From assembly GCA_032718475.1 (NCBI GenBank), contig JAUCBJ010008130.1:53636-117635 (forward strand): a stretch of DNA of 64,000 nucleotides, read 5' to 3'. The notes beneath the pieces are model-generated. The model was not told where the DNA came from, made no database searches, and worked only from the letters and a program-made list of their open reading frames with translations. How positions within the stretch are numbered: position 1 is the stretch's first letter; each line of letters starts with the position of its first letter. Below, in pieces: positions 24,054-45,345 of the stretch. A program made the translations under genes and the position numbers. Source of the stretch: Nemertoderma westbladi. Taxonomy: Eukaryota > Animalia > Xenacoelomorpha.

Positions 24054-25767
24054 TGACTGACTGACTGACTGACTGACTGACTGACTGACTGACTGGCTGG
24101 CTGACTGGCTAGCTGGCTGGCTGGCTGACTGACTGACTGACTGACTGACTGACTGACTGACTGACTGACTGACTGACTGACTGACTGACTGACTGACTGA
24201 CTGACTGACTGACTGACTGACTGACTGACTGACTGACTGACTGACTGACTGACTGACTGACTGACTGACTGACTGACTGACTGACTGACTGACTGACTGA
24301 CTGACTGACTGACTGACTGACTGACTGACTGACTGACTGACTGACTGACTGACTGACTGACTGACTGACTGACTGACTGACTGACTGACTGACTGACTGA
24401 CTGACTGACTGACTGACTGACTGACTGACTGACTGACTGACTGACTGACTGACTGACTGACTGACTGACTGACTGACTGACTGACTGACTGACTGACTGA
24501 CTGACTGACTGACTGACTGACTGACTGACTGACTGACTGACTGACTGACTGACTGACTGACTGACTGACTGACTGACTGACTGACTGACTGACTGACTGA
24601 CTGACTGACTGACTGACTGACTGACTGACTGACTGACTGACTGACTGACTGACTGACTGACTGACTGACTGACTGACTGACTGACTGACTGACTGACTGA
24701 CTGACTGACTGACTGACTGACTGACTGACTGACTGACTGACTGACTGACTGACTGACTGACTGACTGACTGACTGACTGACTGACTGACTGACTGACTGA
24801 CTGACTGACTGACTGACTGACTGACTGACTGACTGACTGACTGACTGACTGACTGACTGACTGACTGACTGACTGACTGACTGACTGACTGACTGACTGA
24901 CTGACTGACTGACTGACTGACTGACTGACTGACTGACTGACTGACTGACTGACTGACTGACTGACTGACTGACTGACTGACTGACTGACTGACTGACTGA
25001 CTGACTGACTGACTGACTGACTGACTGACTGACTGACTGACTGACTGACTGACTGACTGACTGACTGACTGACTGACTGACTGACTGACTGACTGACTGA
25101 CTGACTGACTGACTGACTGACTGACTGACTGACTGACTGACTGACTGACTGACTGACTGACTGACTGACTGACTGACTGACTGACTGACTGACTGACTGA
25201 CTGACTGACTGACTGACTGACTGACTGACTGACTGACTGACTGACTGACTGACTGACTGACTGACTGACTGACTGACTGACTGACTGACTGACTGACTGA
25301 CTGACTGACTGACTGACTGACTGACTGACTGACTGACTGACTGACTGACTGACTGACTGACTGACTGACTGACTGACTGACTGACTGACTGACTGACTGA
25401 CTGACTGACTGACTGACTGACTGACTGACTGACTGACTGACTGACTGACTGACTGACTGACTGACTGACTGACTGACTGACTGACTGACTGACTGACTGA
25501 CTGACTGACTGACTGACTGACTGACTGACTGACTGACTGACTGACTGACTGACTGACTGACTGACTGACTGACTGACTGACTGACTGACTGACTGACTGA
25601 CTGACTGACTGACTGACTGACTGACTGACTGACTGACTGACTGACTGACTGACTGACTGACTGACTGACTGACTGACTGACTGACTGACTGACTGACTGA
25701 CTGACTGACTGACTGACTGACTGACTGACTGACTGACTGACTGACTGACTGACTGACTGACTGACTG
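24054..25767. repeat. (GACT)n microsatellite, ~1.7 kb, nearly perfect
   Basis: Read directly; a few GGCT variants near 24095-24125. Confidence 0.98.
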
Positions 25768-27888
25768 ACCAATAAAGACACAAACTGCTCTATTTTCTAG
25801 ACGGGGCAATCAGGAGCGTATAATTACTAATGTAGGGTTCAGGTACAGAAACCCACTACTTACCGTTGGATGGCTCTAATCTGCCGTCCGCTAATATATT
25901 TTACTAAATTTCTACGACTCCTTCTAAATTCTCGTTCCTTTCTCTACCAATTGCTCGATAGAGAGCTAACTGTTCGAATATATGAGCCACGCGGGAATAA
26001 CCAAAACAATAAACCCGAATCGGCTCCCTAAGCTGACTTAAAACGAGTGTGAGAGATTTGACACTCAGAGTGTATTCTATAGCCTAATATTACTGTAAAA
26101 TTGCGCTTACAACTACGTCCTTTCTAATCGCATCTAATCGCAATACTGGGGTTCCCTAACGGAATGTGTGAATGTGAGAATATTTAAATAATCAAAAAAT
26201 TGATGCAGCGTTTATTTTGGGACTCAGCCTTATCTGCGGCTGGCTTTAGGCCAGCAATTTACTGATGCGCGCTGCGTACTGTATACTACGATGTGAATTT
26301 TGTCCGCTAATTCAAATAACTGCCCAGCGTGAATAGTGTACGGTACTCTAAATTTATTACCTAACTACCCTCCACTATGCAGCGTACAAATTCTTAATTT
26401 TACTAATTAATTTCAGTCACAAATATGTAACGGCGTACTAATTACTAAGTATTCCAGAATGCGTAATTCTAAATTATTACGCAACGGGTCACACTAGCAA
26501 CAGCCTAAAATACCGTATTATTTTCGACCTAATCAGAAATTAATTACAGTAAGCTAAGAAATAGAAATCAATCAAAGGGAAAGAGCACCTATCCAAGCAT
26601 TCGTGATTTATTAGGCACACTTTAGTAACGCACCAATCAGCATTCAAACAACAATCGCAATCTACAGTTTAGCTAGCAATTCACAACTCGCAACTCGCAA
26701 CTCGCAACGTAAAGGATGCAGATCTCTCCCGGCTACGTCTAGGCTTCCTAACTAACCCAATTCCCGTCCCCCTAATACTACAAAATAGAGACAAAACCTG
26801 GATCATCAGCCCCTAATTGCCGAGCCGGCGTACCTGACCCACTCTACGCTGCAACTTGCGCGCAATAGTAATCCCCCCAATGTTGCTTGTCTTTGAATCC
26901 TCCGCACTCCCGTCGTCGCTAACCCCCCGATGCGCCCGCCACGCTTACCGGTACCCTAGCCCTCCATCAGAATGAGTAGCTACCGTAGCGGCACATGCAA
27001 ATCACAAAGGTCTGACAGTCTGAGAAATCCCGTAGGATTATTGTCGAAAGAAATCACATAGAACCATTTACTAAAGGGTAGAAATCATAGTTCCAACTTG
27101 TAATTAACAGCGATCATTGAGATTGATTGAGAAACACAATAAGAATCAAACAGAAATTGCAAATTTACGAATCATTGCAAGAAATCAAAAAAGGGCAGTA
27201 ATTTACACAGAAAAACTAAGCATCGAATAATAGTTGAAGGTGAGCTGTGTGGGGTGTGGTGGATGACTAAGGATGTGTAAGCTGTGCAGACAATGGAAGT
27301 ACGCCAATTTATAGGTGATTTGAGAAGGGTGATGCAATCGATCTCTCATTGGCTCCCCAATCCGAGCTAACATTAGACCAGCCTGGAAGCAGTTAGGCCA
27401 ATAAGAGAGCCGGATTGTGGGCCTATAGCTCCCTGAAATCGTAAATTGCCACCATATAAGGTAATTTTCCCGATGCTTAATTTGGCGGTACTAATAATAT
27501 CATCCACAAATATAAATTTAGCGCAATTATAGAGAAATTAAAACCAATAGCTAGCCTCATCAAGGCTAATAACGGCAAGCCCAGATCCAGGGTCCAACAA
27601 GGACTTGCTACCCTGGAACTATCTACTTATATCCTATTACAAAACTACATAGGTAGGGCTACATACTATACAAAATGGATGAGTTCAAAATATATGGGCG
27701 TTTCAACTTCCTTATCTAAATATCATTGCGCATTATGCCTTATCTAAATAATTATACTGCATCACGGACTAATATATGATACTATATAATGAACTAATAT
27801 ATTATACTGTATAATGGACTAACATTATTATACTGTATAACGGACTAATATATTACGTAATGTAGGTACAGCGCCATATACCATAACA
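25768..27888 (-). repeat. 3' LTR of element B (2121 bp)
   Basis: Begins TGTTATGG on the minus strand after GGAGCGG; ~17 substitutions and 3 indels versus the 5' LTR. Confidence 0.92.
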
Positions 27889-28394
27889 CCGCTCCAAGGG
27901 AAATCATGCAATGTTTCCCTCCAATTGTAGAAGAGTGTAAGGCGATGTATACAAAATAAAATAAATCTCCTTCAAATAATCTAAATGTCTTGATACTATA
28001 CTATTTACAAATATTGCCATAGATATTGCATAATGAATTGCATACAAATTAAATTTACAAAACATTATCTCTCTCTCAATGTTAACGATTATTACATACA
28101 AATTAAATTTACAAAAATACTGTTTCTCATTCGTTCTACATAATGATTACTACATACAAATTAAATTTACAAAAATACTTTCAAATTATAAAATTTTGCT
28201 AGAGTAGGTGAAAGGAGTAAGCCAAACCCGCAGGTTTGTCTCCCCAATCACCTCCTTCGCCTCTCTCATAATATAAATCCAAATCAGTGCGACTAGTGTA
28301 TATGAGTCAAGTCGGATATTTACAAATGCTACAATATACATCAGAGCGACGATGATGTATATATCTAGAGTCTGTCGCCCCGTGATACGATGCA

Positions 28395-29003
28395 TTACTG
28401 ACCCGCTCCTGGGTTCTTCGGGCTCGCTCCTCTCTTTCGCCCCCTACCCAGATACACCAATCGTCCTCCAGTTGACTCCGTTGACGTGGTCCGTGAGGCG
28501 TCACTCCCCGGAACCGGCGACGATGTTCCCTGAGCTCCGACAGATACCCGGCTCGTGCTTCGTCCTCGGCCTCGTCCCAATGGTCGTGCTCCTGTGGTCG
28601 CTTCCGCTAACTCTTCCTTCTGCAATTGCATGCGCGCCTTCTCCGACGCACCCTGCGCCTTGCGTTGCAATCTCTGTGCCTCTATAATCGAGTGATAGTG
28701 GTCGTCCTTGACTTGACGCTTGTCTTGGACCTCTCCTCCTGGTTCCTTCCGTGAGCCTTGAGCTCCAACGGTCGTCGTTGTGGGCGCTGCGGTTCGCTGT
28801 TCCTCGATCCTCTTAGCGGTCAATGACCCCACTGGTACGTGAGTCAACAGGAATTCGTTGCGGTATTGAATAGCCGCCATCCTCCAATCTCCTCGCGCGC
28901 GCACCACTTTCCTAGTTTCCGAAAACAAACCCTTTGTAATACGGTCGCAAATAGCAACAAAGTTCCAAGTGTACTTGTTGTCCATATTTAGTTGTCTGAA
29001 GTA
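28395..29003 (-). CDS. In-frame continuation of the accessory ORF after a single TAA (basic, RG-rich tail)
   Basis: TAA at 29006-29004 is followed by six sense codons, then the 196-aa ORF in the same frame. Confidence 0.55.
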   Translation of the reverse strand, partial: YFRQLNMDNKYTWNFVAICDRITKGLFSETRKVVRARGDWRMAAIQYRNEFLLTHVPVGSLTAKRIEEQRTAAPTTTTVGAQGSRKEPGGEVQDKRQVKDDHYHSIIEAQRLQRKAQGASEKARMQLQKEELAEATTGARPLGRGRGRSTSRVSVGAQGTSSPVPGSDASRTTSTESTGGRLVYLGRGRKRGASPKNPGAGQ

Positions 29004-32000
29004 TTACCGAACGACTATGACTCCAGTGTTCTGTGGAAGGTCTTGAGCGGTTAGGATGAGCTCCTGATATTGTGGTAGCGACTGTAGATATGGCTCGTAC
29101 GCAACATGTGATGGGTCTACCGCCCAAAATCCATATCCCGCCTTAAATGGTAACCAACGCATCTGCGCTTGAATGTGGTAGTCAGCCACACTCTCCCACT
29201 TATCTAGCATCTCCCGAAGTAGGTTAGCGCTATGGTTCTGGAAGGAATCGTCTCGCAGTTGGCATCTCGCGCTACGATGTCCCTTTACTCCACAATATCC
29301 ACATTGAGAAATGAAAACGGTGCACGTATGAAACGAATGGTCGGTCTCATTGCACCAACGGCAGACCTTATGCGCCGCCTCCACTACCGCGTCGCACGAT
29401 TTTTGATTGTGCCTTGTGCTGCCGCACAACTTGCACCTACGCGCTTGTGGAAACCAGGCCCTCTCGTATATGAGGTCTCCAATCGGTTTCGCACTTCCTT
29501 CTTTCCCAATGTCTAATACGATGTCGTCCTCTCCGGTCAGCGGTTGTCGATCCGGAACGAAGTAAACATCCTCGCCCTTGTCCTCTATCTCCAATATTTC
29601 CTCCCGCGTTCGTTTCGGATATGTCTTCTCCACCGGAAGATCTACTCCAAACACCTCTACTAACGTCTCCGGCCAACCCTCTCTAACAGGTCTATCAGCC
29701 TCCGAGTGGAAGGGAGTACCAAACCCGCGGGTTTGATTCCCGAACCACTTCTCCAAAGCTTCTGGCATCGGATACTCCATCGACGGTCGGTCTCCCAAAT
29801 CTCCGATATTCTGTCGATATATCCCTTCGAATATTGCTAATCCTCTCCTAACCAACGATGTATTCTCTAGCGATTGGTTGAAGAACGGGGTTAAGAAACG
29901 CTTCATCACGTCGGATTGGATTCCCCCTTTCGAGCGAACGTATTGATCTCCTCCGAACACCAATGGATGACGCTTCAAAACTCGCGCAACGATATCCGCT
30001 AATAAACAAGTTACCGTGTTCGACTCAAGCACCAAATAATATTGTAGTGACGCACGGGGTGGCGCGCATATGTTCCAATACACTAACGCTTGCCGCTTGA
30101 AGTGGGATTTGAACTCCACTCCCGGTGGCGTGTTATATTCACCATACGCCTCCTTGTATTTCTTCTGCGTCTTCAACTTGAAGTCCCAATTATACAATAA
30201 ATGTGCTATGAAGCCCATACCAGTCTTGGCAGAGTTGGGATACTCCCTATAAATTCCCATGTTTTGTGCCCATAGCAACAATAGCTTGGTGTCGACAAAC
30301 GGTCTCGGCAATCTATCTTCTAAATCAGTCATGGCGTTGAAGTCACTCTCCAAATCACTCTGGACTCCCGATCCCACCTTGACGTAATCTTGGCTAAGAA
30401 TCGCCTCTCTAACCTTCTTGGGTAGCATCCTGGCGTCGATACGCTCCGCTCCGTGCATACCTCCTCGCCTGCATACCTCCAAAATCTGTTCCCTAGGATC
30501 CTTCCCCTTCCGATATTGTGTCGTGATTATGGGCTCCAGTCTCTCTCTATCCGCTCTTACGCGCATAAACACATGAGTCACACCATCGGCCGCGCGAATT
30601 TGAATGCACTTACTAGTCAAGCATTCCTGATGAGACCCTCCTTCATCCTCGTCGGATGGGGTCCACATGCGCTCGATAGCCTTGTGGTCGTCATATCGGG
30701 TGTAAGATCCCTTTCTCCTCAGCCACGCCTGGTCTACCTCCTCGTCATCTGGGAATGTAGCCACTGCGACCCATACCTTGATGTACTTGTCTAACCATCC
30801 AAATAACTTGCTCTCTTTTCCCGGAGCTCCAATCTTGTCCAAAGTGTCGTAGTCTGTGATCTGTATCGGGACATCACGCAAGAACTTCACGCATAAAACT
30901 TCCCGTAGACAGTCGACGTTCCAATGATCCGACATCCTCACCATCGGCAAGAATCTAATCGCTTCTCGCGACTCCGGGTGATCTACCAATATTGCAGGTT
31001 CGCTACCGTCGGAATAATACACCGGTCGGGGTTGAGATACGGCCTGTGGAACAAATCCGGTCACTCTCCTCGTCTCCTCTTGATGTCTATCCGCGGTCTT
31101 ATTATATTCCGCTATCCGCGCTTCGAATAATTGTTTCGCTTTCGCCGCTCGCTCCTCCTGCCGCAACGCGTCTATGTCGTCCTGATGCTCAGGCGTGAGA
31201 GCTCTTGCTCGGTGAGGCGAAGTAAACGTAGTCCAGGGACTCGAGAGCTCCAAACCCGCAGGTTTGGTACCCGAGTCGCGTGCTGCTTCGCGCCGCGCCT
31301 CTAGGTCCTTGTAGGCTCGGTACAGCGAAATGGCCGCTGCTGTCTCTATCAAACTGGGTGTCGAACAGGGTTTAATCTCCGTATACGGATCTAAAGTCGT
31401 AACGGTCGGCGTAACGGGTCTTGGAGGTTGCTTTCCGCTGAAGTCGATACTGATCATCGGGTTGCTCATTGGGTAACCTCCCTCGTTATATCTAAGGAAC
31501 TGGTGAGCTTGGCATCGCGTTAATATCGGTTCGGGATGTTGCTCGTCCAATCGGTCGGGAATCGCCATGTCTTGTTTGTTCATGCATTCTCCACATTTGT
31601 AGAACAACTTGTATACACTGAAGACCTTCGACGTCTCTTGATTCTCGCCTCGAGTCCTCCGATACAGATGCATTCCGTCGAACTGATCTCGGACTGCAGG
31701 TAGCGGCTCTTCGTGTCGTAAATACATATTCATGTGGTACAGCCGCGCAATCTCCCCATCCGGGTCTGCGCTAATGTCGCACACGTCTAACGCGAAATCG
31801 TAGGGATACCGAGTGCGATACTCTTTCCGCAAAACTTCCATACGGTCCCCCAACGCTCTCATTCTTTCCCTCCTTAACTCTTTATCATAAGCAGGTTTAT
31901 ATTTCCCATTTAGCTCCATCACCGACCTCCCGTGGTAGTACACATTCGAATCCTTGCCTCCTGGTCGGGCAAATGGCAGCTCCGCCTCCTCTCTGGCAGT

Positions 32001-32039
32001 AAATCCTCTCCGCAGTTGCGCTCTAATTTCCTTCTCCAT
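29004..32039 (-). CDS. Accessory ORF of element B: DEDD (WRN/Mut-7/EXD-like) 3'-5' exonuclease-like domain plus three CCHC zinc knuckles
   Basis: CIQIRA..LPKKVREAILSQDYVKVGSGVQSD..FVDT..GMGFIAHLL..K..W..LQYYLVLE; CKLCGSTRHNQKSC, CRWCNETDHSFHTC, CGYCGVKGHRSARC. Confidence 0.8.
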   Translation of the reverse strand: MEKEIRAQLRRGFTAREEAELPFARPGGKDSNVYYHGRSVMELNGKYKPAYDKELRRERMRALGDRMEVLRKEYRTRYPYDFALDVCDISADPDGEIARLYHMNMYLRHEEPLPAVRDQFDGMHLYRRTRGENQETSKVFSVYKLFYKCGECMNKQDMAIPDRLDEQHPEPILTRCQAHQFLRYNEGGYPMSNPMISIDFSGKQPPRPVTPTVTTLDPYTEIKPCSTPSLIETAAAISLYRAYKDLEARREAARDSGTKPAGLELSSPWTTFTSPHRARALTPEHQDDIDALRQEERAAKAKQLFEARIAEYNKTADRHQEETRRVTGFVPQAVSQPRPVYYSDGSEPAILVDHPESREAIRFLPMVRMSDHWNVDCLREVLCVKFLRDVPIQITDYDTLDKIGAPGKESKLFGWLDKYIKVWVAVATFPDDEEVDQAWLRRKGSYTRYDDHKAIERMWTPSDEDEGGSHQECLTSKCIQIRAADGVTHVFMRVRADRERLEPIITTQYRKGKDPREQILEVCRRGGMHGAERIDARMLPKKVREAILSQDYVKVGSGVQSDLESDFNAMTDLEDRLPRPFVDTKLLLLWAQNMGIYREYPNSAKTGMGFIAHLLYNWDFKLKTQKKYKEAYGEYNTPPGVEFKSHFKRQALVYWNICAPPRASLQYYLVLESNTVTCLLADIVARVLKRHPLVFGGDQYVRSKGGIQSDVMKRFLTPFFNQSLENTSLVRRGLAIFEGIYRQNIGDLGDRPSMEYPMPEALEKWFGNQTRGFGTPFHSEADRPVREGWPETLVEVFGVDLPVEKTYPKRTREEILEIEDKGEDVYFVPDRQPLTGEDDIVLDIGKEGSAKPIGDLIYERAWFPQARRCKLCGSTRHNQKSCDAVVEAAHKVCRWCNETDHSFHTCTVFISQCGYCGVKGHRSARCQLRDDSFQNHSANLLREMLDKWESVADYHIQAQMRWLPFKAGYGFWAVDPSHVAYEPYLQSLPQYQELILTAQDLPQNTGVIVVR

Positions 32040-32795
32040 TATTAGCCACGTATATACATATATATCCCAATAAGGTTCCGTTACGTAACTAATTACACTG
32101 TGGGTAAATCAGTTAGATGTCGCCGAAGGACAGACCTCTTGAGCCCCCCCCCCCCCGCCTTACAGCAGTTCAGGTTCGACTCTCTAGATCCCGTCTCATT
32201 CCTAACTATCCTCTAACCTATTCCCATGCATAGCGCAAAACTTTGGAGGTAAACTGGCCGTGACCAACTCACTTTTTGATGCCCAAACTACTCCCATTAC
32301 TTGTACTAAACTACAGTAGTTAGAAAGGACCATAATCTCAATGCTCGACTATACCAAACCCACAGGTTTGATAATCGAACATCACACTTCACTGCAAACT
32401 ACTGAGTGGGGTCCGCTACGCCCTGGTGCTACTAACCTTTAGCACCTTAGTTGTACTGCTGGCACCAATCTGTGGAAGTTGCTAAACTCAATTTACACTC
32501 CTACGTAATATAGCCGTCACCATGGTTTCTAAATGCTATTTTCCAGGCTTCACGACTTTTCAAATTACTGTTTATCTATAGACGGATTCTAAAACACGTC
32601 TATACACAGCGTCTGGAATTGTCTTGGGTTCACTTCTAATTTTTTAAAATTTTTTAATTTTCCAAAATTTTTGAAATAAAATTTTTGTTTTGATACCCAC
32701 CAGACAAAACTCAACGCAATCACCACAAGCCCGCTCCTATGCATTTCCTTGTATTTGCATACGAGGAATGCATACGAAGTGAGTTGCGTCCAACA

Positions 32796-35700
32796 CTAAT
32801 TTTGTTTTGAGGCAGGAGATAAATTATAATCTCCTGTCTCGATGCGTGTCTCTTTTAATAACACGATATCTTGGACCGGTCGGTCCAAGGTGTGTAAACC
32901 ATTAGTTTTACACTTCTTTGGGTGCGGACACTTGCACCTAATTTTCACAGTGACTGTGCGCACTATGTTTTGCACGTCTGGGTGTATATGCAAGATAACT
33001 CCCGTCTCCCAGTATTTTCTCTTGACAATCGGTTCGGTTATCAATACGTAATCTCCCCTTTGGAGACTCCGAACCGTTTTGTACCACTTTGTTCTGGTAG
33101 ATATGGTGGGAAGATAGTATTCCCGCCAATATTCCCAGAATGTGTACGCTACGAATTGTGTCACTTTCCAGCTCTTACGACTATATAGGTCGGCACTAAT
33201 GGGTTCTGATGCCGGCACAAGAAATGCTGGACTCTGCATTAGCAAATGATTCGGCGTTAATGCAACACCGTCTGGCAACATAGCTATCGGCCTTGAGTTT
33301 AATGTATGCTCGATTTCGATGAAAGCTGAGACCAGTTCGTCATCGGTAAGTTGTTTGTTCACAGGCAATGTTTTGGCAATGGCCTGCTTTACAGAGCGAA
33401 CTAAACGCTCCCAACTTCCTCCTCTCCAAGGACTTTCTGGAGTATTGAATCTCCACTCTACTCTTTGCGGCAAAAGTGCTGCAGAAATTTCTTTATTCTG
33501 TGCCGCTTTATGAGCCGCGTTCAACTCGCTATTCCCTCCGACAAAGTTTGTACCCTTATCGGAGTAGAACGCCTTTACTAGTCCTCTCCTGGCCATAAAT
33601 CTCTTTAAGGCCAGGAGCAGAGATTTGGTCGACATGTCTGCCACACGCTCGATGTGTATGGCTCTACTAGCCATGCATGTCAGTAGCAGACCCCATCGCT
33701 TGTGGGTCAGCCGTCCACTCTTTGCCTCAATCGGACCAAAACAGTCCACCCCTGTGTTCGTAAAGGGTGGGTCATATGCCTGCACTCTCACTTCCGGGAG
33801 TTCAGCCATCTCCTGTTCCAATACTCTGGCGTTCACCCTCTTGCAAACCAGACAGGCGTCATACATAGTGCCTACTGCCCTGCTTGGCTGCAATAGAGTG
33901 AATCGCTGTCTCGCTGCCGACAAACAGTGTAACTTTCCCGCGTGATGCAACCTCTTGTGTATATCCCATAGAATCGCTCTTTGCAATTCTATTGGGTGAC
34001 TAGGGATTATCACTGGGAACCTAAACTGTGAATTTATGTCAACAGTCTGGATTCTCGATCTATGACAAATAAACCCTTATGGATTAATGGACTCCATTTT
34101 CTAAGGGGTTTATAGAGAACTGGTCGTTGAGCCGATAATAGATAGAATTCTTTTGGGAAGGCACACATTTGATAATGCTTCAAATGCTTTAATTCCGCTT
34201 GATCAATCTCATCCTCTGTCAGAGGTTGTTTCAATTTCCGAATTTTCTCACTATTAGTGCTCATTTGTTCTCCTAAATGTTCCGAATGTTTTAAACAAAG
34301 GTACGAAATGTATCGGCTTAACCACGCAGTTCTTTTACAAATTGTCAGCCAAGAGGCAGACGAATTTAGTAATTTGTCATAAATACTACATGGCTCTAAT
34401 GCCAGCAACGGTTGTCCGCTAACTATTGGAAGTTTCGAATCCAAACCCGCAGGTTTGGAAACCAAAGGCTCCATTTTGTCGGTCATTTTCTGTCCGTCAC
34501 TTACCAACTGTGACTCCGGTTTAGTCTGTAAGGGTGGTTTTATGTCATAACTTACCCTTCCTGACCTAGTAGTCACGTAAGTCTGTAGGTCTGACAGGTC
34601 TCCGGGCCGCTCCAATGACTCTTCAGGCCGCTCCAATGACTCTTCAGGCCGCTCCAATGACTTAAGTTTGGCTTTAGACTTCGACTTAGAGACTTTCTCC
34701 ACCTTGACTTCTGCATCTTCAGGCATCGGATTGGTCACTATCTTTAGTCGCTCTGGCCAATGTTCCTGTGTCCTTGTTAGAAAATCAGGTCCATGCAACC
34801 AAAACTCCTGCGACTCTTCCTGACAGAATTCCGCCGGCATTGCACCTCTCGAAGTTATGTCGGCCGGGTTCAACACTCCCGGACAATGTCTCCATTGTTC
34901 ATTCGTCGAAAAGTCGACGATCTGAGCGCGTCTGTTGGCCACAAATGTCTTTAGTGCAATATTGTCGGCCGCAATGTATACTAACACTAAGGATACGTCC
35001 GTCCAATAGAATAAGGTCAATGTCGTGTCTAATTCCTCTGTTATTTGCTTACTTACCTCGACTGAAACTACAGCCGCCTGTAACTCTGCACGAGGGACAG
35101 TTATGTATTTGACCGGCATTGTCTTTGATCTAGAAGTCACAAAAGCCATCTCAAACTTGTCCTGACTCAACTCTCGGCGAAGGTAGGCTACCATACCAAA
35201 GCCGGTGTGACTTGCGTCACTAAATAAATGGAGTTCGAGATGAGCTGGGAATACCAGCTGATTCGGAAAGTAGGAACGGGGTACATCTATATTTTTCAAT
35301 AGATGTAACTCGGCTTCCCACTCTCTCCACTGCTTTGCATGTATAGGAGATATTGGTTCGTCCCACTCTAGGTCGGACAACCAAATTTTCCTCATGCACG
35401 CTCGTGCCTGTAATATTACCGGACTGATAAAGTTCATTGGGTCAAATAGTCTACTTAACATCGATAAGCAAATTCTCTTTGTCAAAACTTTGTCTGGGCT
35501 ACTGGGCTCAAATCTAACTCTTACCTGAAATTTATCCGTGTTCGGATTCCAAGCGAGTCCCAGTACTCGCGCCAAGGGGATGGGTTCGCTAATAGGGCCT
35601 CCGAATTCGTAGTGAACTTGGTCAGAGGGAAACCCCCTGTAGCCAAGCACTCCTGCAGGCCGTGAGCCACTTCTATGGCTTGTTCCGCTGTGTCCTTGGA

Positions 35701-37702
35701 CACCAATCCGTCGTCCATATAGAAGTTTCTCAAGATGGACTCGATGACTTCTACTGGATACTTACCAATCTGGGCTGTTGCCGTTTTCTTTAGAACAGAC
35801 AGCGTGCCGTTTGGACTATCGCGGGCGCCAAATATCCTAACGTACATTTGGTATGTAACCACTGGGCCGGATAAGTCTTCTTTCTCGTACCAGAGAAATC
35901 GAAGGCTATCCTGGTCTGCCTTACAGGCTCTTACCTGGTGGAACATCGCCTCGATGTCACAAGTGAATGCGAATCGCCGCTGTCTAAAACGCAACAGTAT
36001 TCCTATCAAATAGTTATTCAGGTTGGGTCCATCCATCAACTCTGAATTCAGGGACATACCTCTATAGACTGCTGCGCAGTCGTTGACTACTCGGACTTTG
36101 TCAGGTTTGTCAGGGTGAGTCACATAGTGGTGTGGGAGGTAATAAGTCTGGTCTGTCACTAAGTCAGGGCCTTCTACCTTCCCAGCAAATCCCTTGGCGA
36201 AATAGTTGTTGATCTGGGCGCAATACTTCTCCCTAATGTCCGGATTCTTTAACAACCGAGCCCTTACTCCATTCAATCTTTTCAAGGCTAAGCTGTAGTT
36301 GTTCTCCAACTTAGGAGGTTGTCGACGCCACAACATTCCAACTTCAAAATGTCCAGTCGGTAGCAGACGTATGGTATCTTCCATCATCTCCAGTGACCGT
36401 TTCTCATCAGTAGACATAGCTAGGTCATATCCACCGGGTTCCATTGCGTCCCTATCCAGCCATTCGACGGTTCTGGCTCCTGACTCGAGGTCCTGGCGTA
36501 TCAATTCCTTCTGTAGCTCCTCCTCACTGTATTGGAAAATGTCTAGGTCTCGATATTTAGCCACTTGACCCTCCACTATGTTGGTATAAGTCAAAACGTT
36601 ACTCAAATAGGTAGCGTGGGCCGCTGAACCAGACCCACGGGTCTGATAACAGTAGTCCTCGGGTTCACTATCTGTCTGGTCGTTGTGAAGTGGTCCGACA
36701 ACCTAACATTATCGGGAATCAACTCCTCGTCCGACTCGCTAAAGTCACTATAGTGGTCAATACAGGTTCTCCTAAACTCGTCTATGTCTGGTGGTTCTAC
36801 TAACGGTGGTTGAGTTATAGGCTGTAATTCGTCGTATCTGTCTATTGGCTTGTCGCCACCTGTAAACTCATAAGACATGGGTACTCTTGTATACCAACCT
36901 AGTATGGTCCTATGGGCATGTGGTCCATTGACATGCGGCTCAGCTGGTCTCGTTTCCCATATCTGGTGTGCGATCAGCTGTTCTGCACCAATTAACATAG
37001 AAACATTCCTATAACCTACCTGGTGTCTCGGTATTCTGAGCTTGTCAAAATACTCCTGTGCTATGGGACTCATCGGCGGCACCTTACCTAACTGCCTGCC
37101 GAATCCCTTCATAGCTAGACACTTAAATCCGTCCAATGGCAAAGCTTTCCGTTCTTGTCGAGTATGCTGGTCTCTTGGAAGTAGGGAGTCTAGTTCCACC
37201 GAAATTCTGTGTCCCTTGAGGTCTCCTACCCCGTGCATAGACTTGAACTCTATTTGGATCTCCTCGGCGTCCTGGAAGCTAGAAACGGCTCTCGCCACTT
37301 CCTCGTCGATATATGATAATGTGGACGCAGTGTCCAACATCACATATATTCGCTTCGATCCCTTATCTCCAGTAAGCTTCACCGGAATCACGCTAAATAT
37401 TTCCGACGTGGCCGATGATAAATACGTCCGCGCGCTGGTCGATGAACTATCCGCAGTGAAACCTTGGCAGGTCACCTCTCTTGCGCTCAACTCGCCATCC
37501 TCGTCCGACGAACCTGGTTGATAACCATCGTCCTGAATGCCGGTATACGTATTTCTTCTTATCGATACGGGTTCTTTGCTCCCCTTCCTTTGAGGATTTC
37601 GCTGTAAGTAACGGTCCGTTGGGGTATGGAAATCCGCATGTAGCAACTTGTGATGTAGTCTGCCGCATTCCATGCATCCGTCCTTGCTGTTCGGGCACTG
37701 CC
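32796..37702 (-). pseudogene. Element B PR-RT-RH-IN, broken by frameshifts/stop
   Basis: MLDTAS protease; CDIEAMFHQ..FYMDD RT; FSDAS..NPAD RNase H; GVDCFGP, SDKGTNF, GSWERL integrase; breaks near 36605, 35575 and 34034. Confidence 0.93.
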
Positions 37703-37712
37703 GTCATACATG

Positions 37713-38270
37713 GCATGGGCAGCCTTGAATAGGCTTTCCAGGATTTGGAAGTCACCTAGAATTAATCGGAAACTTAAGGTCCGATTATTTAGAGCAGCAG
37801 TAGTTCCAGTACTCCTCTACGGGAGTCCATGCTGGGCTCTAACTGCTGAGGACACCAAATCTCTGGATGGCACATTCACAAGAATGCTACGCCGGGTACA
37901 TTGTGTCAAGTACAATGCACACATCTCCAACCAGACACTATATAACATTGGAGGTGTCTCATTGGTTCCCCCAAGCTTGACACTAGAACAAAATCGCCTC
38001 CGCTTTGCAGGACATTGCTTTCGCCGTGAGGACCAGCCAGTGCATAATCTTGTACTTTGGCAGCCTCATGGAGTGAATAAGCATGGTGGACAGCCCATGA
38101 CTTTCTTGAGACGCATCTTAAAGGACACTGGCCTGGAAGATGCGGATGATCTAGCAAATGTCATGGGTGATAGGGAGTTGTGGCGGTGCAATTTTGTTGA
38201 CAAGCCGGCACAGCATTCTTAAAAATGCAGCTGCAATTCAGCATGCCGATCCTAGTAGTAGATCCTAGTA
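37713..38270 (+). mobile_element. 5'-truncated RTE-clade LINE inserted in the Gag knuckle of element B
   Basis: LKVRLFRAAVVPVLLYGS..RLRFAGHCFR..DRELWR RTE C-terminus, TAG-repeat tail, 10-bp TSD GTCATACATG (37703-37712, 38271-38280). Confidence 0.93.
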
Positions 38271-38345
38271 GTCATACATGACCTGGCGCAAGACATGCCC
38301 AACAGGTATCCAACGTCCGCACTTGAACTCTTCTCTGTTCCGAAT

Positions 38346-41300
38346 TTAATTTTTGAACCGTCTGCAACTATCTAACTTATGGTCGTCAGATCTTACCTCC
38401 TTTAGTAAACAGTATTGGCAACCTACAAATCCATCCGGCAACCCCTGTTGCTTTAACCTAGGTCTATCTAACCGCTCACCTGACCATACTCGCGAGTCTG
38501 ATCTAAAGGCTGGGGTACTCGAATTATATCTGTCTACTGAGTTAAATGTCACAGTGGTCCTGTCATCGTCAAAACTTACCATAGACTTACCGGTAACAGG
38601 TTTAGACTCTCTCATATTCTCCTCTGAGAAGTTTGATTTCATCTCTGCTACTGCGTCTGTGACTATCATGTCATGAATATGCTGAAGTGTCAATACTTTA
38701 CCTTGGCCCTCCAACTTATTCTCTAATTTGCGCCATTTCTGTCTGTAACGCATGTTTAAATGTCTTATTACGCTCTTTAAAACTTCGGCGTGATCACCAT
38801 GATGAGGTAGATTCACCGTCCTCAAGATGTCCAACGCGTTCGAAATAGCGTTCGCTAAGTTCAACAGCTCTAACGGAGTTGTAATCTTTCCGCCCTTACC
38901 CAAGTCTTCTACTATCAACTGTGCCATCTTGGTTTTATTCCCGTAGATGTCGCTAAGCGTCTTCATTGCTAACTCGAATGCTCTTTCATTGCCAACGAAG
39001 TTGTCAGCAATGGCTCTAGGTTCTCGATGGAGCATTTGAAGCAAATAGTTGAACTTCTCGTTGGGAGTAAAGGTGCTGTTGGTTAGCTGCTCGTCGACAT
39101 AGGTTTTGAAAGTCCTCCAATGCTTATGGTTGCCCATAAACTTCTGGGGTTGTTGCGTCGGCAGTCCTTGCCTTGCAGCAAACTTACCTATGTCCCTAAG
39201 GGTTGCGTCGTTCTGGGTTAACAAATGGTTTAGTTCTGCAGGGTTGTTAAGTCTGGTCCTTTCCCGGGGATTGAGACTTACCTGCTCCGCGTCCGTCCTT
39301 CTTTCCTTATAGTTTCGGGACTTCTGACGTCTCATGTCTTCCTCTTCATCACTTGATTCGGTGTCAGTCCTTAGCGCTCGCGTTGGTTTGCGTGCCGAGG
39401 CCCTGACCCAAACATCTTGTATAAACTTTTCGGCTGAGTTTTCGAAATTGGGATTATGGATATTCGGGACAGGCGTCCTTACCTGAGGTCTATGTGGTAT
39501 AGTCTCCTCCGATATGCGTACTCGTTGACTAGGTTGGACTTTATCTAACTCAGGCTTGCTAGGATTAGAATTACCTCTTACCTGGGCTGCTTCCTTTAAC
39601 CGTAGGTTGCTAAGCATGTCCGTTATAGGTTGGATGTGCGGTGATATAGCTTGCGCTAAACTAGCACTTAACTCATCCCTCGTAATAAATTCCTGGCTAG
39701 GGTTCTGTTGTATAGTCGGCTCTATCTGAGTAATCCGCTGTCTCTCATATGATCCCTCTTCCGGTTTAACCCGGAAGTTCTCCGTCGAACTGGGTCGGCG
39801 CTCCGTCCGCGTATTCCAAACCCGCGGGTTCGGTTCGCCCAATACTCGGCCTGTCGGAGTTTCTCTAAACTCTTCGTTCTCGCGTTCCATGTATAGTGGT
39901 GCGGTGCGATGATGCGCTGGATTCTGCGTGATAGGTGAAGCACTAATACCAACTGGCGTGCGATATGTAGAGAACGGTTTAGCGATCCGTGTACTCGTAA
40001 TAGCTGGACCGGGTATAGGAATTCTGGTCGTCATTGACTCGCGTATGGTCGGAGTTCTCGCTTCCTGTTCGGCCTTCTGCAGTGCGAACAGTTCTCGCAA
40101 CTCAGTCCCTACACTCGCCCCACATTCTTCGATCATTCGCATCCCCTTCTCGGCGATTTCATTCGCCTTCCTGGTCCGTTCCTCGCTCTCTAGGTTTAAT
40201 CTCGCACTTTCCAACTGCGCCAGTTTACGTTCTTCTTCTTCCCTCGCTCGTCGTGCTGCGCTCTCTTCTTCCACACGCGCCTTCTCTTCATACAACGCTC
40301 GTCGCTCTTTCTCGATCTTGAGTTCGCGTTCTTTGCGTTCGCGTTCCTTGCATTCGCATTCAAGCTCGAGTTCGCGTTCTTTCTGTTCGCGTTCAAGTTG
40401 GAGTTCGCGTTTGCGTTCCTTGCGTTCGCATTCAAGTTGGAGTTCGCGTTCCTTGCGTTCGCATTCAAGTTGGAGTTCGCGTTCCTTGCGTTCGTGTTCA
40501 AGTTGGAGTTCGTGTTCCTTGCGTTCGCGTTCCGCTTGCTCACGCTTACTTATTTCTTCCAACTCTCTCAACTTCGCGTCTAACTTACGTGTTCGCTCCC
40601 TTTCCCGCTCGGCTTCCTTCCGTGCTTCCGATGCACACAAAACTTCCGCCTGCTGTTCATCCAGTCGGCGTCTTCTCTCCTCCACCGAGTTGTGAGAAAC
40701 AAGGGATCTAGCACATATAACTTTACCTCGTGCGTGACTAACATGGGAATCGCCACTGTCTCTAGATGCATCATCGGGTGGAGTTAACGTTCTCTGCTGG
40801 ATGTTCTCCGTCGTCGGTAGCACCTGGCCCGGTACCACCACTCCACTCTGCATCAGCCAGCTGGTAACTTCCCGCTGATACCTGCGCTCCTCCTTATCCT
40901 GCGTTTCTTCCCGCTCCACTAAATTTCTCAACTCTGCGTCACTCACCTGAGTCGCCTGCGCTTGTGATGCCCATAGCAGCCAGTTCTCCGTCCTAACTCG
41001 TCGAAATCGCTCCGATAATGCGCGGTGCTCCAACAAGGCTGCTAAAACCCTGTCGTAAATCCTCGTCGCCACGTCGCTCGACTGAGACTCTACTGCCTTC
41101 TTTGCTAGGACTGCAAGCTCCTCCGTCTGTTTGAATAACGCTGAGTTGTATCCTTTTCTAATCTCTACTAACCCTTCCCTTCCGATGTTCGCTGAGTCGG
41201 CTAACATCTTCCTTACCTTGTCCGCCGTCCGGGTTATATGTCCGGCATGCGCGCGAAGTTTCTTCTTTATCGCGATATCAAGTTCTCTCTCGCTTACCTG

Positions 41301-41693
41301 ACTCACACTTGGTGGACTTGAAGGATTATTTCGGGAACTAAGGGTACTCCTTACAGCCGCTGGGACCACGGCACTTACCATACCCACAGGTCTGGAAACC
41401 GGGCTCCGGGCTCTCGCTTCTGCTACACTACCCTCCCTATCACTCACCTCTGGTTGGGTTGTAGTACAATCCTTCCTTACAGTAGCGGTAGGGGATCCTA
41501 ATACTATTACCTGAGGTTGCTGTTCTTCCTCACTAGTTACTGTCTCGTCCTCCTGTTCACTTACATCAGCGTCACTCACTGCGTCGTCATAGTCGGCATT
41601 GTCGTCAACAGTAATATTAACGCTATCGTCAGTCGGCGGTCCTGCCGCCGTCTCATAGCTGTCCTCTAGTGCCTCCTTCTCTGAGACACTCAT
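38346..41693 (-). pseudogene. Element B Gag (1115 aa up to a frameshift/stop)
   Basis: Coiled coil with 33-bp ERELQLECERK repeats, DUF1759-like KFMGN..W..F..EKFNYL, Cys/His knuckles continuing in another frame. Confidence 0.88.
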
Positions 41694-42850
41694 AGTCTAA
41701 ATAATATTTGCCTTCCGGCAAAAATATCTCGCAAAAGTTCGAGATATATATATAATTTAATCGAAATGCGATTAAATTATTGTCAAATATCCAATTGTCC
41801 AAAATGTCAAAATAAATTCGCAATGCAATATTGTGAATTTAATAGGATCTAATTTTAGCAAATACCAGTACAATATTTAAACAAAATATTATTCTATAGT
41901 TATTATATAGTATTTAAATACCGGTATGACACAAATAATTTTTTGAATCTAATACAAAATATTTAAAATAAACTTGCCACCTGAATATTTCTAATTTTAC
42001 ATAGATAACTCTAATCAACGCAATTTTGATTTCAAATATTATATGTATCCACTAGCGCGTGGCTACATCTTCGGGTTGCGACTCTCTCTCTCTCTAACTC
42101 GAGCGATTCAAAAACCCATGGTCGGCTAAACCTAACTATCCTAACTAATAAATTGAGTTCAGCTTCGCAGTTAAACAACCGATAATTTTTTACTGCTTCC
42201 ACAAACACAATGGTGCCAACAGAACAACTAACCTTGTTTGCTGTGAGATTCCACGTCCGCGTCCAAAGTTTCAGTCCTTTCGCTGATTGCAAACCGAACC
42301 CGCAGACCCACACGAACCCCAAACTCAGAAGCTCCGTCTTGCCATGTATCTCCAGATGGTATAAAATAACTAAGCGGTTATCCAACATACCGGTACAAAA
42401 CTCTAGATTTTATTACAAAATAATTTTGACCAAAACTGAATTCTCACAAACCTAGCTAAAAATTTCAAAAAACTTACTAATTACGGCCTGCCCTAACGGC
42501 CTAAGGAACCGCTGTATCTGCGATTAGTAAACGCACTACCGTATATCCACTGTATGCAATACAGTAAGTAAAACAGTACACCAACCTAACAGCCTAATGA
42601 ATACTGTGTGCGGTACACCAAAACAAATGTCCTTTCTACTTGTACGCAGTAACAGCAATCAGCCTAATGTACTACTGTACTATTGTACGCGACCAGTGAA
42701 TACAGTAATCTAAACTAACAGCCTAAAGGAATACACTCGATGTTCTACTGTACGCAGTACAGTGCCTAATACTGTGATCTAATTCGTACTTACTGTACGC
42801 AGTACAGCAAACAAAGCATCCTTTACTGTTAAACGAACTACCCCAGCCTA

Positions 42851-44978
42851 ACCAATAAAGACACAAACTGCTCTATTTACTAGACGGGGCAATCAGGAGC
42901 GTATAATTACTAATGTAGGGTTCAGGTACGGAAACCCACTACTTACCGTTGGATGGCGCTAATCTGCCGTCCTGCTAATATATTTTACTAAATTTCTACG
43001 ACTCCTTCTAAATTCTCGTTCCTTTCTCTATCAATTGCTCGATAGAGAGCTAACTGTTCGAATATATGAGCCACGCGGGAATAACCAAAACAATAAACCC
43101 GAATCGGCTCCCTAAGCTGACTTAAAACGAGTGTGAGAGATTTGACACTCAGAGTGTATTCTATAGCCTAATATTACTGTAAAATTGCGCTTACAACTAC
43201 GTCCTTTCTAATCGCATCTAATCGCAATACTGGGGTTCCCTAACGGAATGTGTGAATGTGAGAATATTTAAATAATCAAAAAATTGATGCAGCGTTTATT
43301 TTGGGACTCAGGCTTATCTGCGGCTGGCTTTAGGCCAGCAATTTACTGATGCGCGCTGCGTACTGTATACTACGATGTGAATTTTGTCCGCTAATTCAAA
43401 TAACCGCCCAGTGTGAATAGTGTACGGTACTCTAAATTTATTACCTAACTACCCTCCGCTATGCAGCGTACAAATTCTTAATTTTACTAATTAATTTCAG
43501 TCACAAATATGTAACGGCGTACTAATTACTAAGTATTCCAGAATGCGTAATTCTAAATTATTACGCAACGGGTCACACTAGCAACAGCCTAAAATACCGT
43601 ATTATTTTCGACCTAATCAGAAATTAATTACAGTAAGCTAAGAAATAGAAATCAATCAAAGGGAAAGAGCACCTATCCAAGCATTCGTGATTTATTAGGC
43701 ACACTTTAGTAAGCACCAATCAGCATTCAAACAACAATCGCAATCTACAGTTTAGCTAGCAATTCACAACTCGCAACTCGCAACTCGCAACTCGCAACGT
43801 AAAGGATGCAGATCTCTCCCGGCTACGTCTAGGCTTCCTAACTAACCCAATTCCCGTCCCCCTAATACTACAAAATAGAGACAAAACCTGGATCATCAGC
43901 CCCTAATTGCCGAGCCGGCGTACCTGACCCACTCTACGCTGCAACTTGCGCGCAATAGTAATCCCCCCAATGTTGCTTGTCTTTGAATCCTCCGCACTCC
44001 CGTCGTCGCTAACCCCCCGATGCGCCCGCCGCGCTTACCGGTACCCTAGCCCTCAATCAGAATGAGTAGCTACCGTAGCGGCACATGCAAATCACAAAGG
44101 TCTGACAGTCTGAGAAATCCCGTAGGATTATTGTCGAAAGAAATCACATAGAACTATTTACTAAAGGGTAGAAATCATAGTTCCAACTTGTAATTAACAG
44201 CGATCATTGAGATTGATTGAGAAACACAATAAGAATCAAACAGAAATTGCAAATTTACGAATCATTGCAAGAAATCAATAAAGGGCAGTAATTTACACAG
44301 AAAAACTAAGCATCGAATAATAGTTGAAGGTGAGCTGTGTGGGGTGTGGTGGATGACTAAGGATGTGTAAGCTGTGCAGACAATGGAAGTACGCCAATTT
44401 ATAGGTGATTTGAGAAGGGTGATGCAATCGATCTCTCATTGGCTCCCCAATCCGAGCTAACATTAGACCAGCCTGGAAGCAGTTCGGCCAATAAGAGAGC
44501 CGGATTGTGGGCCTATAGCTCCCTGAAATCGTAAATTGCCACCATATAAGGTAATTTTCCCGATGCTTAATTTGGCGCTACTAATAATATCATGCACAAA
44601 TATAAATTTAGCGCAATTATAGAGAAATTAAAACCAATAGCTAGCCTCATCAAGGCTAATAACGGCAAGCCCAGATCCAGGGTCCAACAAGGACTTGCCA
44701 CCCTGGAACTATCTACTTATATCCTATTACAAAACTACATAGGTAGGGCTACATACTATACAAAATGGATGAGTTCAAAATATATGGGCGTTTCAACTTC
44801 CTTATCTAAATATCATTGCGCATTATGCCTTATCTAAATAATTATACTGCATCACGGACTAATATATGATACTATATAATGAACTAATATATTATACTGT
44901 ATAATGGACTAACATTATTATACTGTATAACGGACTAATATATTACGTAATGTAGGTACAGCGCCATATACCGTAACA
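42851..44978 (-). repeat. 5' LTR of element B (2128 bp shared portion)
   Basis: Begins TGTTACGG on the minus strand; matches 25768-27888. Confidence 0.92.

Positions 44979-45300: not shown

Positions 45301-45345
<45 letters not shown>

Follow-up and report, generated by a model that had tools for sequence, protein, structure and literature searches.

Nine evenly spaced hairpins and an exonuclease-like third gene in a BEL/Pao retrotransposon of Nemertoderma westbladi: a candidate RNA target and its candidate reader

Introduction

CERV, the accessory protein of the C. elegans LTR element Cer1, is the product of a spliced mRNA and is required to export the element's unspliced RNA, according to the available excerpt of the report (PMC10309623). 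Cer1 with CERV and HIV with its Rev-RRE pair resemble the element described here in three ways. Each is an LTR element, each encodes an accessory protein whose mRNA is spliced (a prediction in our case) and each needs to export unspliced RNA that still bears splice sites. However, the RRE is a single structured region, whereas our element carries nine small, evenly spaced hairpins, three of them outside the predicted intron. In the same excerpt no cis element is described for CERV. Unlike Rev and CERV, the protein of our element combines an exonuclease fold with knuckles.

A second parallel concerns the protein. The bdelloid LTR elements Juno and Vesta, and Terminons, carry, downstream of pol, a third ORF whose product has a DEDDy fold like that of RNase D, and the authors cite EXD1 and Maelstrom as inactive RNA-binding relatives (PMC5408684, in part). 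Juno and Vesta belong to retrovirus-like rotifer clades and have intact catalytic residues, and no hairpin is mentioned in the sections available. Our element differs in being BEL/Pao, in its incomplete ExoI motif and in the three CCHC knuckles that follow the fold; the likeness noted here is one of layout. For such exonuclease-like third genes in LTR retrotransposons, published descriptions name neither substrate nor target.

The remaining parallels concern the RNA or DNA target. HIV NC contacts the guanines at positions 2 and 4 of a tetraloop, as in SL2 and SL3 of HIV-1, and a CCHC knuckle of RSV binds the UGCG loop of SL-C (PMC7599994, PMC5035970, PMC8833184, all in excerpt). These retroviral sites are single, lie in the 5' leader and are read by Gag, whereas in our element the loops are repeated in coding sequence and a second knuckle protein is available. 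The TLS, ILS and GLS signals of the Egalitarian (Egl)-BicD system consist of two helices with a 3'-strand bulge, a form that would suit about 6 of the 9 hairpins here. They occur several per transcript and are bound by an exonuclease-homology domain that does so without its catalytic residues (PMC13186709, in part). However, Egl is a host protein, its signals share no loop sequence and its U-A rule is unmet here. VANC of the VANDAL elements is an element-encoded accessory gene with an element-specific repeated motif, as in our case, and acts over whole elements via these motifs. VANDALs, though, are DNA transposons with tandem-repeat DNA motifs, as opposed to a one-strand RNA structure that is dispersed and lies mostly within ORFs (PMC5735166, in part). 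A literature search of partial coverage found no arrangement like the one reported here.

Results

The element and its third gene

Four elements, A to D, were compared in the window, the 64-kb stretch of N. westbladi DNA that was analysed. Element B is a BEL/Pao LTR retrotransposon of ~19 kb on the minus strand, in which two LTRs enclose gag and pol with the domain order PR-RT-RH-IN (Table 1). The assignment is carried by DUF1759 (E 1e-8), Peptidase_A17 (3e-39) and DUF5641 (1e-17). The element RNA would be ~16 kb with a 5' leader of 1.15 kb, and Gag has Cys/His knuckles.

Table 1. Features of element B and its nine hairpins (positions in the 64-kb window; sense is the minus strand)
Feature	Position	Strand	Remarks
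5' LTR, ~2.1 kb	42848..44967	-	lacks the hairpin; has donor-like sites (44039, 42947)
gag (DUF1759)	38346..41693	-	reading frame broken near 3' end
LINE-like fragment, inserted, 568 nt	37706..38275	+	DUF6451 below cutoff; other family copies lack the insertion
pol (protease, RT, Peptidase_A17, integrase H2C2, DUF5641)	32796..37703	-	four overlapping frames in this copy
Span with 18 GGTAAG and 3 GGTGAG 5' splice-site-like motifs	34505..41448	-	gag-pol
Branch point and 3' splice acceptor, predicted	32098..32116	-	58 nt before accessory ATG; sequence pattern only
Accessory ORF, 1011 aa	29004..32039	-	fold predicted as DEDDy 3'-5' exonuclease, ExoI motif incomplete; also three CCHC knuckles and a conserved module at the C terminus
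Basic, RG-containing frame, 202 codons	28395..29003	-	same frame as accessory ORF, after its stop
3' LTR	25765..27877	-	differs from 5' LTR by 17 mismatches and 9 gap columns
Hairpin 1 (new)	41367..41406, core 41378-41394	-	N-terminal part of gag; loop UGUG; a single G-A mismatch
Hairpin 2	39805..39844, 16-nt core at 39817	-	gag; loop CGCG; G-U in stem
Hairpin 3 (new)	38473..38512, core 38484-38500	-	gag, ahead of knuckles; loop CGCG
Hairpin 4 (new)	36618..36657, core 36629-36645	-	protease-RT linker; loop CGUG; stem G-C replaces A-U
Hairpin 5	34430..34469, 16-nt core at 34442	-	Peptidase_A17 (RNase H)-integrase linker; loop UGCG; lower stem in different register
Hairpin 6	32343..32382, 16-nt core at 32355	-	non-coding pol-accessory ORF spacer; loop UGUG; longest stem of the nine
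Hairpin 7	31239..31278, 16-nt core at 31251	-	accessory ORF, N-terminal part; loop UGCG
Hairpin 8	29708..29747, 16-nt core at 29720	-	accessory ORF, between exonuclease fold and knuckles; loop CGCG
Hairpin 9	28211..28250, 16-nt core at 28223	-	3' non-coding region; loop UGCG

Element B alone has the accessory ORF, and a search for a relic of it in elements A, C and D found none. The protein is predicted to adopt a DEDDy exonuclease fold of the RNase D/WRN type with an incomplete first catalytic motif. Profile matches include Lin28A at the knuckles (E 1.4e-6), the NC proteins of HIV and RSV, and EXD2 (E 0.0047). Structural comparison of the fold model with NrnC, Nibbler, Egl and RNase D gives Z of 10-11.4 at rmsd ~4 over 180-225 aligned residues, the best being NrnC (Z 11.4, rmsd 3.9, 185 aligned) with a model whose mean pLDDT is low (45). 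Foldseek returned no match at E 0.001 or better. Egl held the top Foldseek rank but tied with other DEDDy proteins in the structural comparison, and its rank was not taken as a sign of kinship. Pfam assigned no family to the exonuclease region. A single-sequence match to rotavirus VP4 (E 0.01) was discarded because profile and fold searches both give DEDDy.

Eight remote homologs have an identical layout; the contigs of two homologs measure 13 and 19.5 kb. Six of them have the ExoI D-x-E; one lacks the region and one has D-x-K. In element B neither of two alignments places a D-x-E at ExoI, but their register is unstable and an acidic patch is nearby. The ExoII D is retained, and ExoIII reads Y-x3-E, as it does in two homologs. 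Word-indexed protein searches with the accessory ORF gave nothing, and a profile search gave two proteins, one of them new. DNA of the remote homologs was not found in metagenomes with the accessory ORF, nor in metagenomes, viral contigs or genome contigs with a two-homolog alignment. Relatives sought by integrase in viral contigs were not found either, and peptide footprints of the hairpin occur in none of 10 homolog proteins.

Nine copies of one hairpin

The initial annotation had reported a short hairpin at six places along element B. All six were verified, and they far exceed a shuffled background: CAAACC-N4-GGTTTG with at most one mismatch has 6 matches in the 64-kb window against 0.17 expected, a number attained by 0 of 100 shuffles. 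The count itself was too low. A scan tolerating up to 4 mismatches added three copies, which makes nine, all on the sense strand. When every 6-4-6 gapped word was scanned without bias, the hairpin core came out as the top dispersed word of element B (5 exact copies), whereas in A, C and D no word is dispersed in 3 copies. The nine copies score 15.5-28.9 bits in a leave-one-out matrix, with every other minus-strand place at 9.9 or below. A covariance model built from the nine gives its members 34.5-44.3 bits and the next minus-strand match 8.6, and finds no tenth sense copy. A weak look-alike at ~42294-42311 was left out of the count.

The hairpin is absent from both LTRs and, as had been noted, from elements A, C and D of the window. 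The co-occurrence of hairpins and ORF is that of a single element, against two full elements and one fragment with neither trait, all within this window. The copies are dispersed singly, not in tandem, and 7/9 sit in coding frames. The three reading frames and the peptides KPAGL (twice), QTRGF and NPRVW were as annotated. The proposal that selection acts at the nucleotide level was supported. Rfam over 19.3 kb gave a sole, chance-level match (E 1.7) away from the hairpins, and a tRNA scan was blank. A pri-miRNA reading was dropped on the length threshold for pri-miRNA stems, those here being only ~13-17 bp.

Spacing is even, with a mean of 1.57 kb and a CV of 0.24 (P 1.8e-4 under random placement). 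With the LINE insertion removed the gaps are 1562, 1332, 1287, 2188, 2087, 1104, 1531 and 1497, the two widest covering RT/RNase H and integrase. When placement was restricted to non-domain sequence, 0 of 400,000 trials were as even.

The probable folded strand and the shared loop

Covariation, which the initial annotation had proposed as a check, is present: 83.8% of 117 cells pair, both sides have changed in 16 cells, and 0/500 shuffles were that high, in a test that took its structure from these very sequences. Paired positions include 13 G-U and no A-C, and the G-U pairing proposed for the copy at 39816 (hairpin 2) is among what was seen. Loop variation is TG in 8 cases and CA in none. The flanks are only 32% identical between copies, yet those of each copy lengthen its own stem. 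Pairing with the own partner ranks 3/720 among permutations of the 16-nt flanks, although the antisense strand passes too (1/720). The extension lies mostly beyond a 2-nt 3' bulge. This +2 register suits ~6/9 copies and does not fit those at 34441, 38484 and 41378, and the lower helices are often shorter than 6 bp. Folding in 318-nt context leaves two copies poor, hairpin 2 with a pairing probability of 0.02 and another with ~0.3. Overall, the evidence points to folding as single-stranded sense RNA, in line with the original proposal; the G-U excess over A-C and the covarying flanks carry this. The same asymmetries in stem and loop, with flanks that covary while dissimilar, count against a symmetric dsDNA site of the VANC type, which had also been suggested.

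What feature of the loop is kept? Three copies are indeed cUNCGg tetraloops, as first noted. However, the UNCG pattern fits just 3/9 and YNMG 6/9, whereas YGYG fits 9/9. Because of this, the feature that selection keeps would be the guanines at loop positions 2 and 4, present in 9/9 copies and of the kind read by retroviral CCHC knuckles, rather than the extra-stable fold. In comparison with retroviral Psi, knuckle-readable G loops are present in all nine, and the 5' leader position is occupied by none (0/9).

Among family contigs hairpin 6 has just 2 variable places in 38 nt, which preserve YGYG or fall at the bulge junction. The depletion of variants is borderline (2/38 vs 14/78, P 0.052), and an adjacent stretch is nearly invariant too. 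A depth peak was seen above this spacer hairpin and was not counted as evidence. In the whole-element comparison, 40 of 1514 variant rows include none at a hairpin core and so have no bearing on conservation there.

Splice signals

The accessory mRNA is predicted to arise by splicing to the acceptor at 32098, where both branch point and acceptor are canonical. One sequencing run tentatively taken for RNA, with 26 contigs aligned, was not counted as evidence of expression. Upstream, GGTAAG is enriched in gag (11 vs 3.3 expected, 0/400 codon shuffles) and pol (5 vs 1.3); downstream of the acceptor there is none. Two hairpins adjoin donor-like sites. In hairpin 1 a GUAAGU starts at the 3' foot, and in hairpin 3, where U-A replaces the closing C-G pair, such a site lies 4 nt past the hairpin. 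An in-frame Gag-accessory fusion from the GGTAAG sites was considered and rejected because the acceptor requires phase 2, which is impossible for GGTAAG inside an open frame. Three of the nine hairpins lie downstream of the predicted acceptor and would also be in the spliced mRNA. The initial annotation missed this 5' splice-site enrichment, as well as the three added copies, the bulged lower stem and the even spacing.

Discussion

The best reading, we infer, is a distributed Rev/CERV-like pair. The accessory protein would dock on the YGYG hairpins and coat the long RNA, protecting it against decay or unwanted splicing and aiding its export, and to this we give a probability of roughly 0.4. 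The nine hairpins are predicted to fold in the element RNA as bulged stem-loops. The accessory mRNA would come from splicing to the 32098 acceptor, and the unspliced form would keep an intron of ~11 kb packed with strong 5' splice-site motifs. Going by known chemistry, the CCHC knuckles would read the loop guanines and the exonuclease-like domain would grip the bent stem. The even spacing may reflect a short-range effect that needs renewal along ~16 kb of RNA. The knuckle/exonuclease ORF is therefore retained as a plausible partner of the hairpins, as first proposed, though not as a strict Rev/RRE analogue. The RRE is located in an intron and confined to intron-containing RNA, whereas hairpins of which 3/9 are in the spliced mRNA cannot mark unspliced RNA alone. 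An extended version seems tentative, even doubtful: one hairpin per 1.5 kb would form a periodic RNA address, read by the element's knuckle pseudo-exonuclease and combined with decoy U1 sites, by which a 16-kb intron-retaining RNA evades nuclear surveillance.

What if the loops are read by Gag instead? Its knuckles might recognize dispersed packaging or condensation signals that help to pick out and compact a genomic RNA of unusual length. Where G2/G4 and UGCG loops have direct precedents, these are Gag NC domains on packaging signals, and the Gag of element B has knuckles of its own. Dispersed packaging signals reportedly occur in RNA viruses, and CG-containing loops could kiss between two RNAs, for which MoMuLV offers a precedent. 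However, retroviral packaging signals cluster in the 5' leader, and the 1.15-kb leader here has no hairpin. Elements A and C package RNA too, without a repeated hairpin; three copies fall in the predicted spliced mRNA, for which packaging would not be expected; and nine sites would be sparse for capsid-protein contacts. We regard this reading as unlikely, though the most probable of the rivals. Distinctly unlikely is that a host RNA-binding protein (the Egl-BicD adaptor, an export receptor or a splicing repressor) steers the RNA to the germ line or into export from the nucleus, with the accessory ORF a bystander. Egl signals, two helices kinked by 3'-strand bulges, do cooperate in pairs per transcript, but Egl requires U-A pairs at two positions separated by 8 bp, where A-U and G-C are disfavoured (PMC13186709). 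Within the 13 consensus pairs, five of nine copies lack U-A altogether and no copy has two such pairs 8 bp from each other. Also in favour, the I factor retrotransposon employs an Egl signal, and two hairpins lie beside donor-like sites. Egl signals have no common sequence, though, whereas the nine hairpins share loop and upper stem, and a host-read signal would serve any BEL element, yet A and C have no hairpin.

Three further readings were weighed. Marks against silencing of chromatin, either VANC-like DNA sites or nascent-RNA hairpins that tether the accessory protein and sustain transcription, are improbable. Even cover of the element suits an effect that spreads a limited distance, the core is near-palindromic, VANC itself acts over whole elements (PMC5735166, in part) and 5' splice sites guard against early termination (PMC12211998, in part). 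However, strand asymmetry and covarying flanks misfit a dsDNA site, VANC recognizes tandemly repeated motifs of non-coding DNA whereas most copies here are coding, and the nascent-RNA version differs from our best reading in outcome alone. Very improbable is an aid to reverse transcription of a long genome, in which the structures, in RNA or in plus-strand ssDNA, would serve for pausing, template switching or internal priming. Among the limits named for long retrotransposons is processive cDNA synthesis (PMC6431247), even spacing fits a replication aid and plus-strand DNA has the sense RNA sequence. Set against this are a motif with no polypurine tract, and invariant loop guanines and frequent G-U that better fit protein recognition of RNA. 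Stable hairpins, moreover, usually impede reverse transcriptase. The least probable reading is a neutral by-product, a short palindrome spread by template switching or a tiny mobile insertion. Coding copies are all in linkers or low-complexity parts that tolerate insertion, and a stem variant is common to 3/4 of the 5' copies, as after duplication. Yet the spacing is even, orientation is the same in 9/9, loop variation is TG-only, flanks differ between copies while complementing within each, and all 54 of 54 viral loci matching the pattern hold a single match.

For most elements, how long unspliced retroelement RNAs dodge splicing, early termination and decay is an unsettled question. Element B unites a sharply defined 40-nt candidate target with a candidate reader, and evenly spaced hairpins that run through three reading frames follow an unusual design rule. 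Specific binding would make the pair a compact RNA tag with its reader. Should the periodic-address reading be true, it would amount to a counter-defence distributed along the RNA, and its readers would be the third genes, widespread in LTR elements, that join exonuclease and knuckles.

Element B and its family

Element B belongs to the BEL/Pao LTR retrotransposons and lies on the minus strand. Its two LTRs align with 2095 matches, 17 mismatches and 9 gap columns. Its gag contains DUF1759 and its pol contains Peptidase_A17, integrase H2C2 and DUF5641. The pol of this copy is split over several frames. LTR identity is 99% (25765-44967) despite several frame breaks in gag and pol, and either an assembly error or a young non-autonomous copy would account for this. 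A 568-nt LINE-like insertion in B is missing from other family copies. Its family has many diverged copies in the host: two DNA runs yield contigs in the tens of thousands at 80-100% identity. Runs X1, X3 and X5 contain some copies that lack 31564-31894 or 30230-32154 of the accessory region (29007-31900), so subfamilies with deletions exist. Integration of B and C might possibly be targeted to the microsatellite arrays around them.

Positions of elements and other features in the window
Feature	Position	Strand	Remark
Element A	630-8477	plus	BEL/Pao; unbroken 2615-codon gag-pol frame; no long repeat partner within the window
Inverted repeat pair	9638-10845		466 bp, 98.7% identical; probably a small DNA transposon
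Open frame	12900-14567	minus	555 codons; no Pfam match
Piece of LINE-like fragment	14448-14604		95% identical to 37706-38275, opposite orientation
Microsatellite arrays	24054-25769, 44979-45727, 58533-59539		long (GACT)n around B; (GACT)n and (GGTC)n flanking C
LTRs of element B	25765-27877 and 42848-44967	minus	~2.1 kb each
Accessory ORF of B	29004-32039	minus	extra ORF, 1011 codons, 3' of pol
LINE-like fragment	37706-38275		high-copy; at B gag-pol junction
Hairpin look-alike, 5' leader	42294-42311	minus	weak; loop UGCG, stem with three G-U pairs; ~0.9 kb 5' of hairpin 1
Elements C and D	46227-49945, 60049-64000		related, 76-82% identical

An evenly spaced hairpin array

The initial annotation counted six copies of a short hairpin along B. 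All six were found, against 0.17 expected, and none of 100 shuffles held as many. However, six is not the total. A scan tolerating up to 4 mismatches added three sense copies at 41378, 38484 and 36629. In leave-one-out scoring all nine reach at least 15.5 bits, against at most 9.9 bits at every other minus-strand place. A covariance model found no further sense copy in the 64 kb, the leader look-alike falls under the model threshold, and an Rfam search over 19.3 kb gave a single chance-level hit (E 1.7), away from the hairpins. The claim that A, C and D lack the motif also stands: a search for dispersed hairpin families of any sequence returned eight copies in B, at most two in A or C and a single one in D. 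Host DNA between elements gave nothing beyond AT-rich clusters of 3-4. IMG/VR has 54 loci with the strict pattern, each of them a single match (54/54).

With the insertion removed, successive gaps are 1562, 1332, 1287, 2188, 2087, 1104, 1531 and 1497 nt (CV 0.24; P 1.8e-4 under uniform placement). When placement was confined outside homology blocks, 0 of 400,000 arrangements were as even, although the blocks are coarse and 2 of the 9 real sites lie inside them. RT/RNase H and integrase lie within the two widest gaps. Coding hairpins occupy linkers and do use all three frames, as proposed. Retrotransposons with a hairpin array at even spacing did not turn up in a literature search of partial coverage.

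Evidence for a folded sense strand

Across 13 consensus pairs in nine copies, 85 cells are Watson-Crick, 13 G-U, none A-C and 19 other. G-U on one strand is A-C on the other, and these counts therefore point to the sense strand (P 1e-4, with the lower register having been chosen on that strand; 5 G-U vs 0 A-C in the upper 7 pairs alone). Loops vary from CG to TG only (8 TG vs 0 CA), a one-sided pattern not expected from symmetric CpG decay. The new copies carry two-sided core changes, C-G to U-A and A-U to G-C, and two of them a G-A mismatch. RNAalifold independently recovered the upper stem together with a 3' bulge and a lower stem of 4 bp; 7/12 pairs show two-sided changes. The bulge register suits about six of the nine copies, and two copies fold poorly given longer context. 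Plus-strand single-stranded DNA shares its sequence with the sense RNA and may be the folded form instead.

The flanks are only 32% identical between copies. Among the first six, left flanks pair best with their own right flanks (out of 720 permutations, rank 35 with 10-nt flanks, 6 with 13-nt and 3 with 16-nt; antisense rank 74, 12 and 1). Stem extension exceeds that of random element flanks (P 1.4e-4, conserved G held fixed) and of 44 distinct viral single matches (P 0.005). The hairpins are very probably a selected single-strand structure.

Family variation was scored at one site, around hairpin 6 in the pol-accessory spacer (32285-32435; four runs contributed 85, 54, 1 and 2 contigs). Among the rows listed are 17 substitution rows at 15 places. 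Ten adjacent places vary just outside the stem, and the commonest change at its edge leaves a G-U pair. Only two places vary within the 38-nt hairpin: the first change turns the loop from UGUG into CGUG, and the second falls at the bulge junction. Counting one indel, 2/38 places vary inside vs 14/78 outside (P 0.052), and nearby 32298-32325 is nearly invariant too. This is consistent with selection, short of proof.

A candidate reader and its predicted mRNA

Third ORFs of DEDDy type are known from LTR elements of rotifers (PMC5408684, PMC6431247). A full HMMER search of 1.84 billion proteins with the accessory ORF retrieved 8 (E up to 0.001), all matching in two stretches. Homologs share an exonuclease-like domain, three CCHC knuckles and a C-terminal module; knuckle 2 has an aromatic residue in 9/9 sequences. 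The remote homologs P0001-P0010 form an unnamed family with a DEDDy exonuclease, three CCHC knuckles and a conserved helical tail; most keep D-x-E, and P0001 has the knuckle module twice. The best solved-structure matches to the profile are Lin28A knuckles (E 1.4e-6), HIV and RSV NC, a trypanosome CCHC RNase D and EXD2. DEDDy nucleases fill the top ranks for a low-confidence fold model (pLDDT 45; Z up to 11.4). The ExoI D-x-E motif is present in 6/8 homologs and at no alignable place in B, where the register is unstable and an acidic patch lies nearby, so an inactive or altered domain is predicted for B. The exonuclease-homology domain of Egl grips a bulged stem with its catalytic residues unused (PMC13186709). 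The fixed G2 and G4 of the hairpin loop, which reads YGYG in 9/9 copies, match the positions that the two HIV NC knuckles bind in SL2 and SL3 (PMC7599994). Binding of a UGCG loop by an RSV knuckle is documented (PMC5035970, PMC8833184), though in that RSV work mutating the loop left Gag specificity unchanged in the assay used. Within the window the family profile matches only element B. Searches of metagenome, viral and genome contigs returned no DNA for any remote homolog, and co-occurrence of array and ORF is observed in this one window. That the accessory protein reads the hairpins, chromatin variant included, is about an even bet.

Upstream of the accessory ATG lie a predicted branch point and acceptor, and the LTR contains donor-like sites. 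Translation of the accessory protein from a spliced mRNA is therefore predicted, and genomic RNA would keep an intron of ~11 kb. This predicted intron has 18 sense GGTAAG vs 1 on the opposite strand (34505-41448, gag-pol). Gag holds 11 vs 3.3 expected (0/400 synonymous shuffles) and tested pol pieces 5 vs 1.3 (2/400), an enrichment noticed post hoc, the hexamer ranking 11th in gag and again in pol. The accessory region and element A have none; C has three. Two hairpins adjoin donor-like sites. It is possible that the GGTAAG motifs act as decoy U1 sites against early termination; 5' splice sites also invite splicing and retention. Protection against early termination by 5' splice sites is reported in PMC12211998.

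What do the hairpins do?

That Gag itself reads the hairpins as packaging signals we consider doubtful. Recognition by a host adaptor is quite unlikely. The bulged two-helix shape of Egl signals suits about six of the nine B hairpins, but none of the nine has, within the 13 consensus pairs, the two U-A pairs 8 bp apart that Egl requires. Chromatin-level anti-silencing is improbable; the suggested likeness to VANC targets fails, the hairpins not being a VANC-type DNA repeat (PMC5735166). An aid to reverse transcription is very improbable. That the array is a neutral by-product is scarcely credible.

The reading we prefer, at a probability of roughly 0.4, is that the accessory protein preserves the long RNA. 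The proposed pair in B would function like Rev/RRE, as suggested, or CERV, but lacks the intron-only placement of Rev/RRE. In Cer1, CERV is a spliced-mRNA product required to export unspliced RNA (PMC10309623). Likewise, the accessory protein would dock on the hairpins of B RNA, and the effect, renewed every 1.5 kb, would keep the long RNA intact and exportable.
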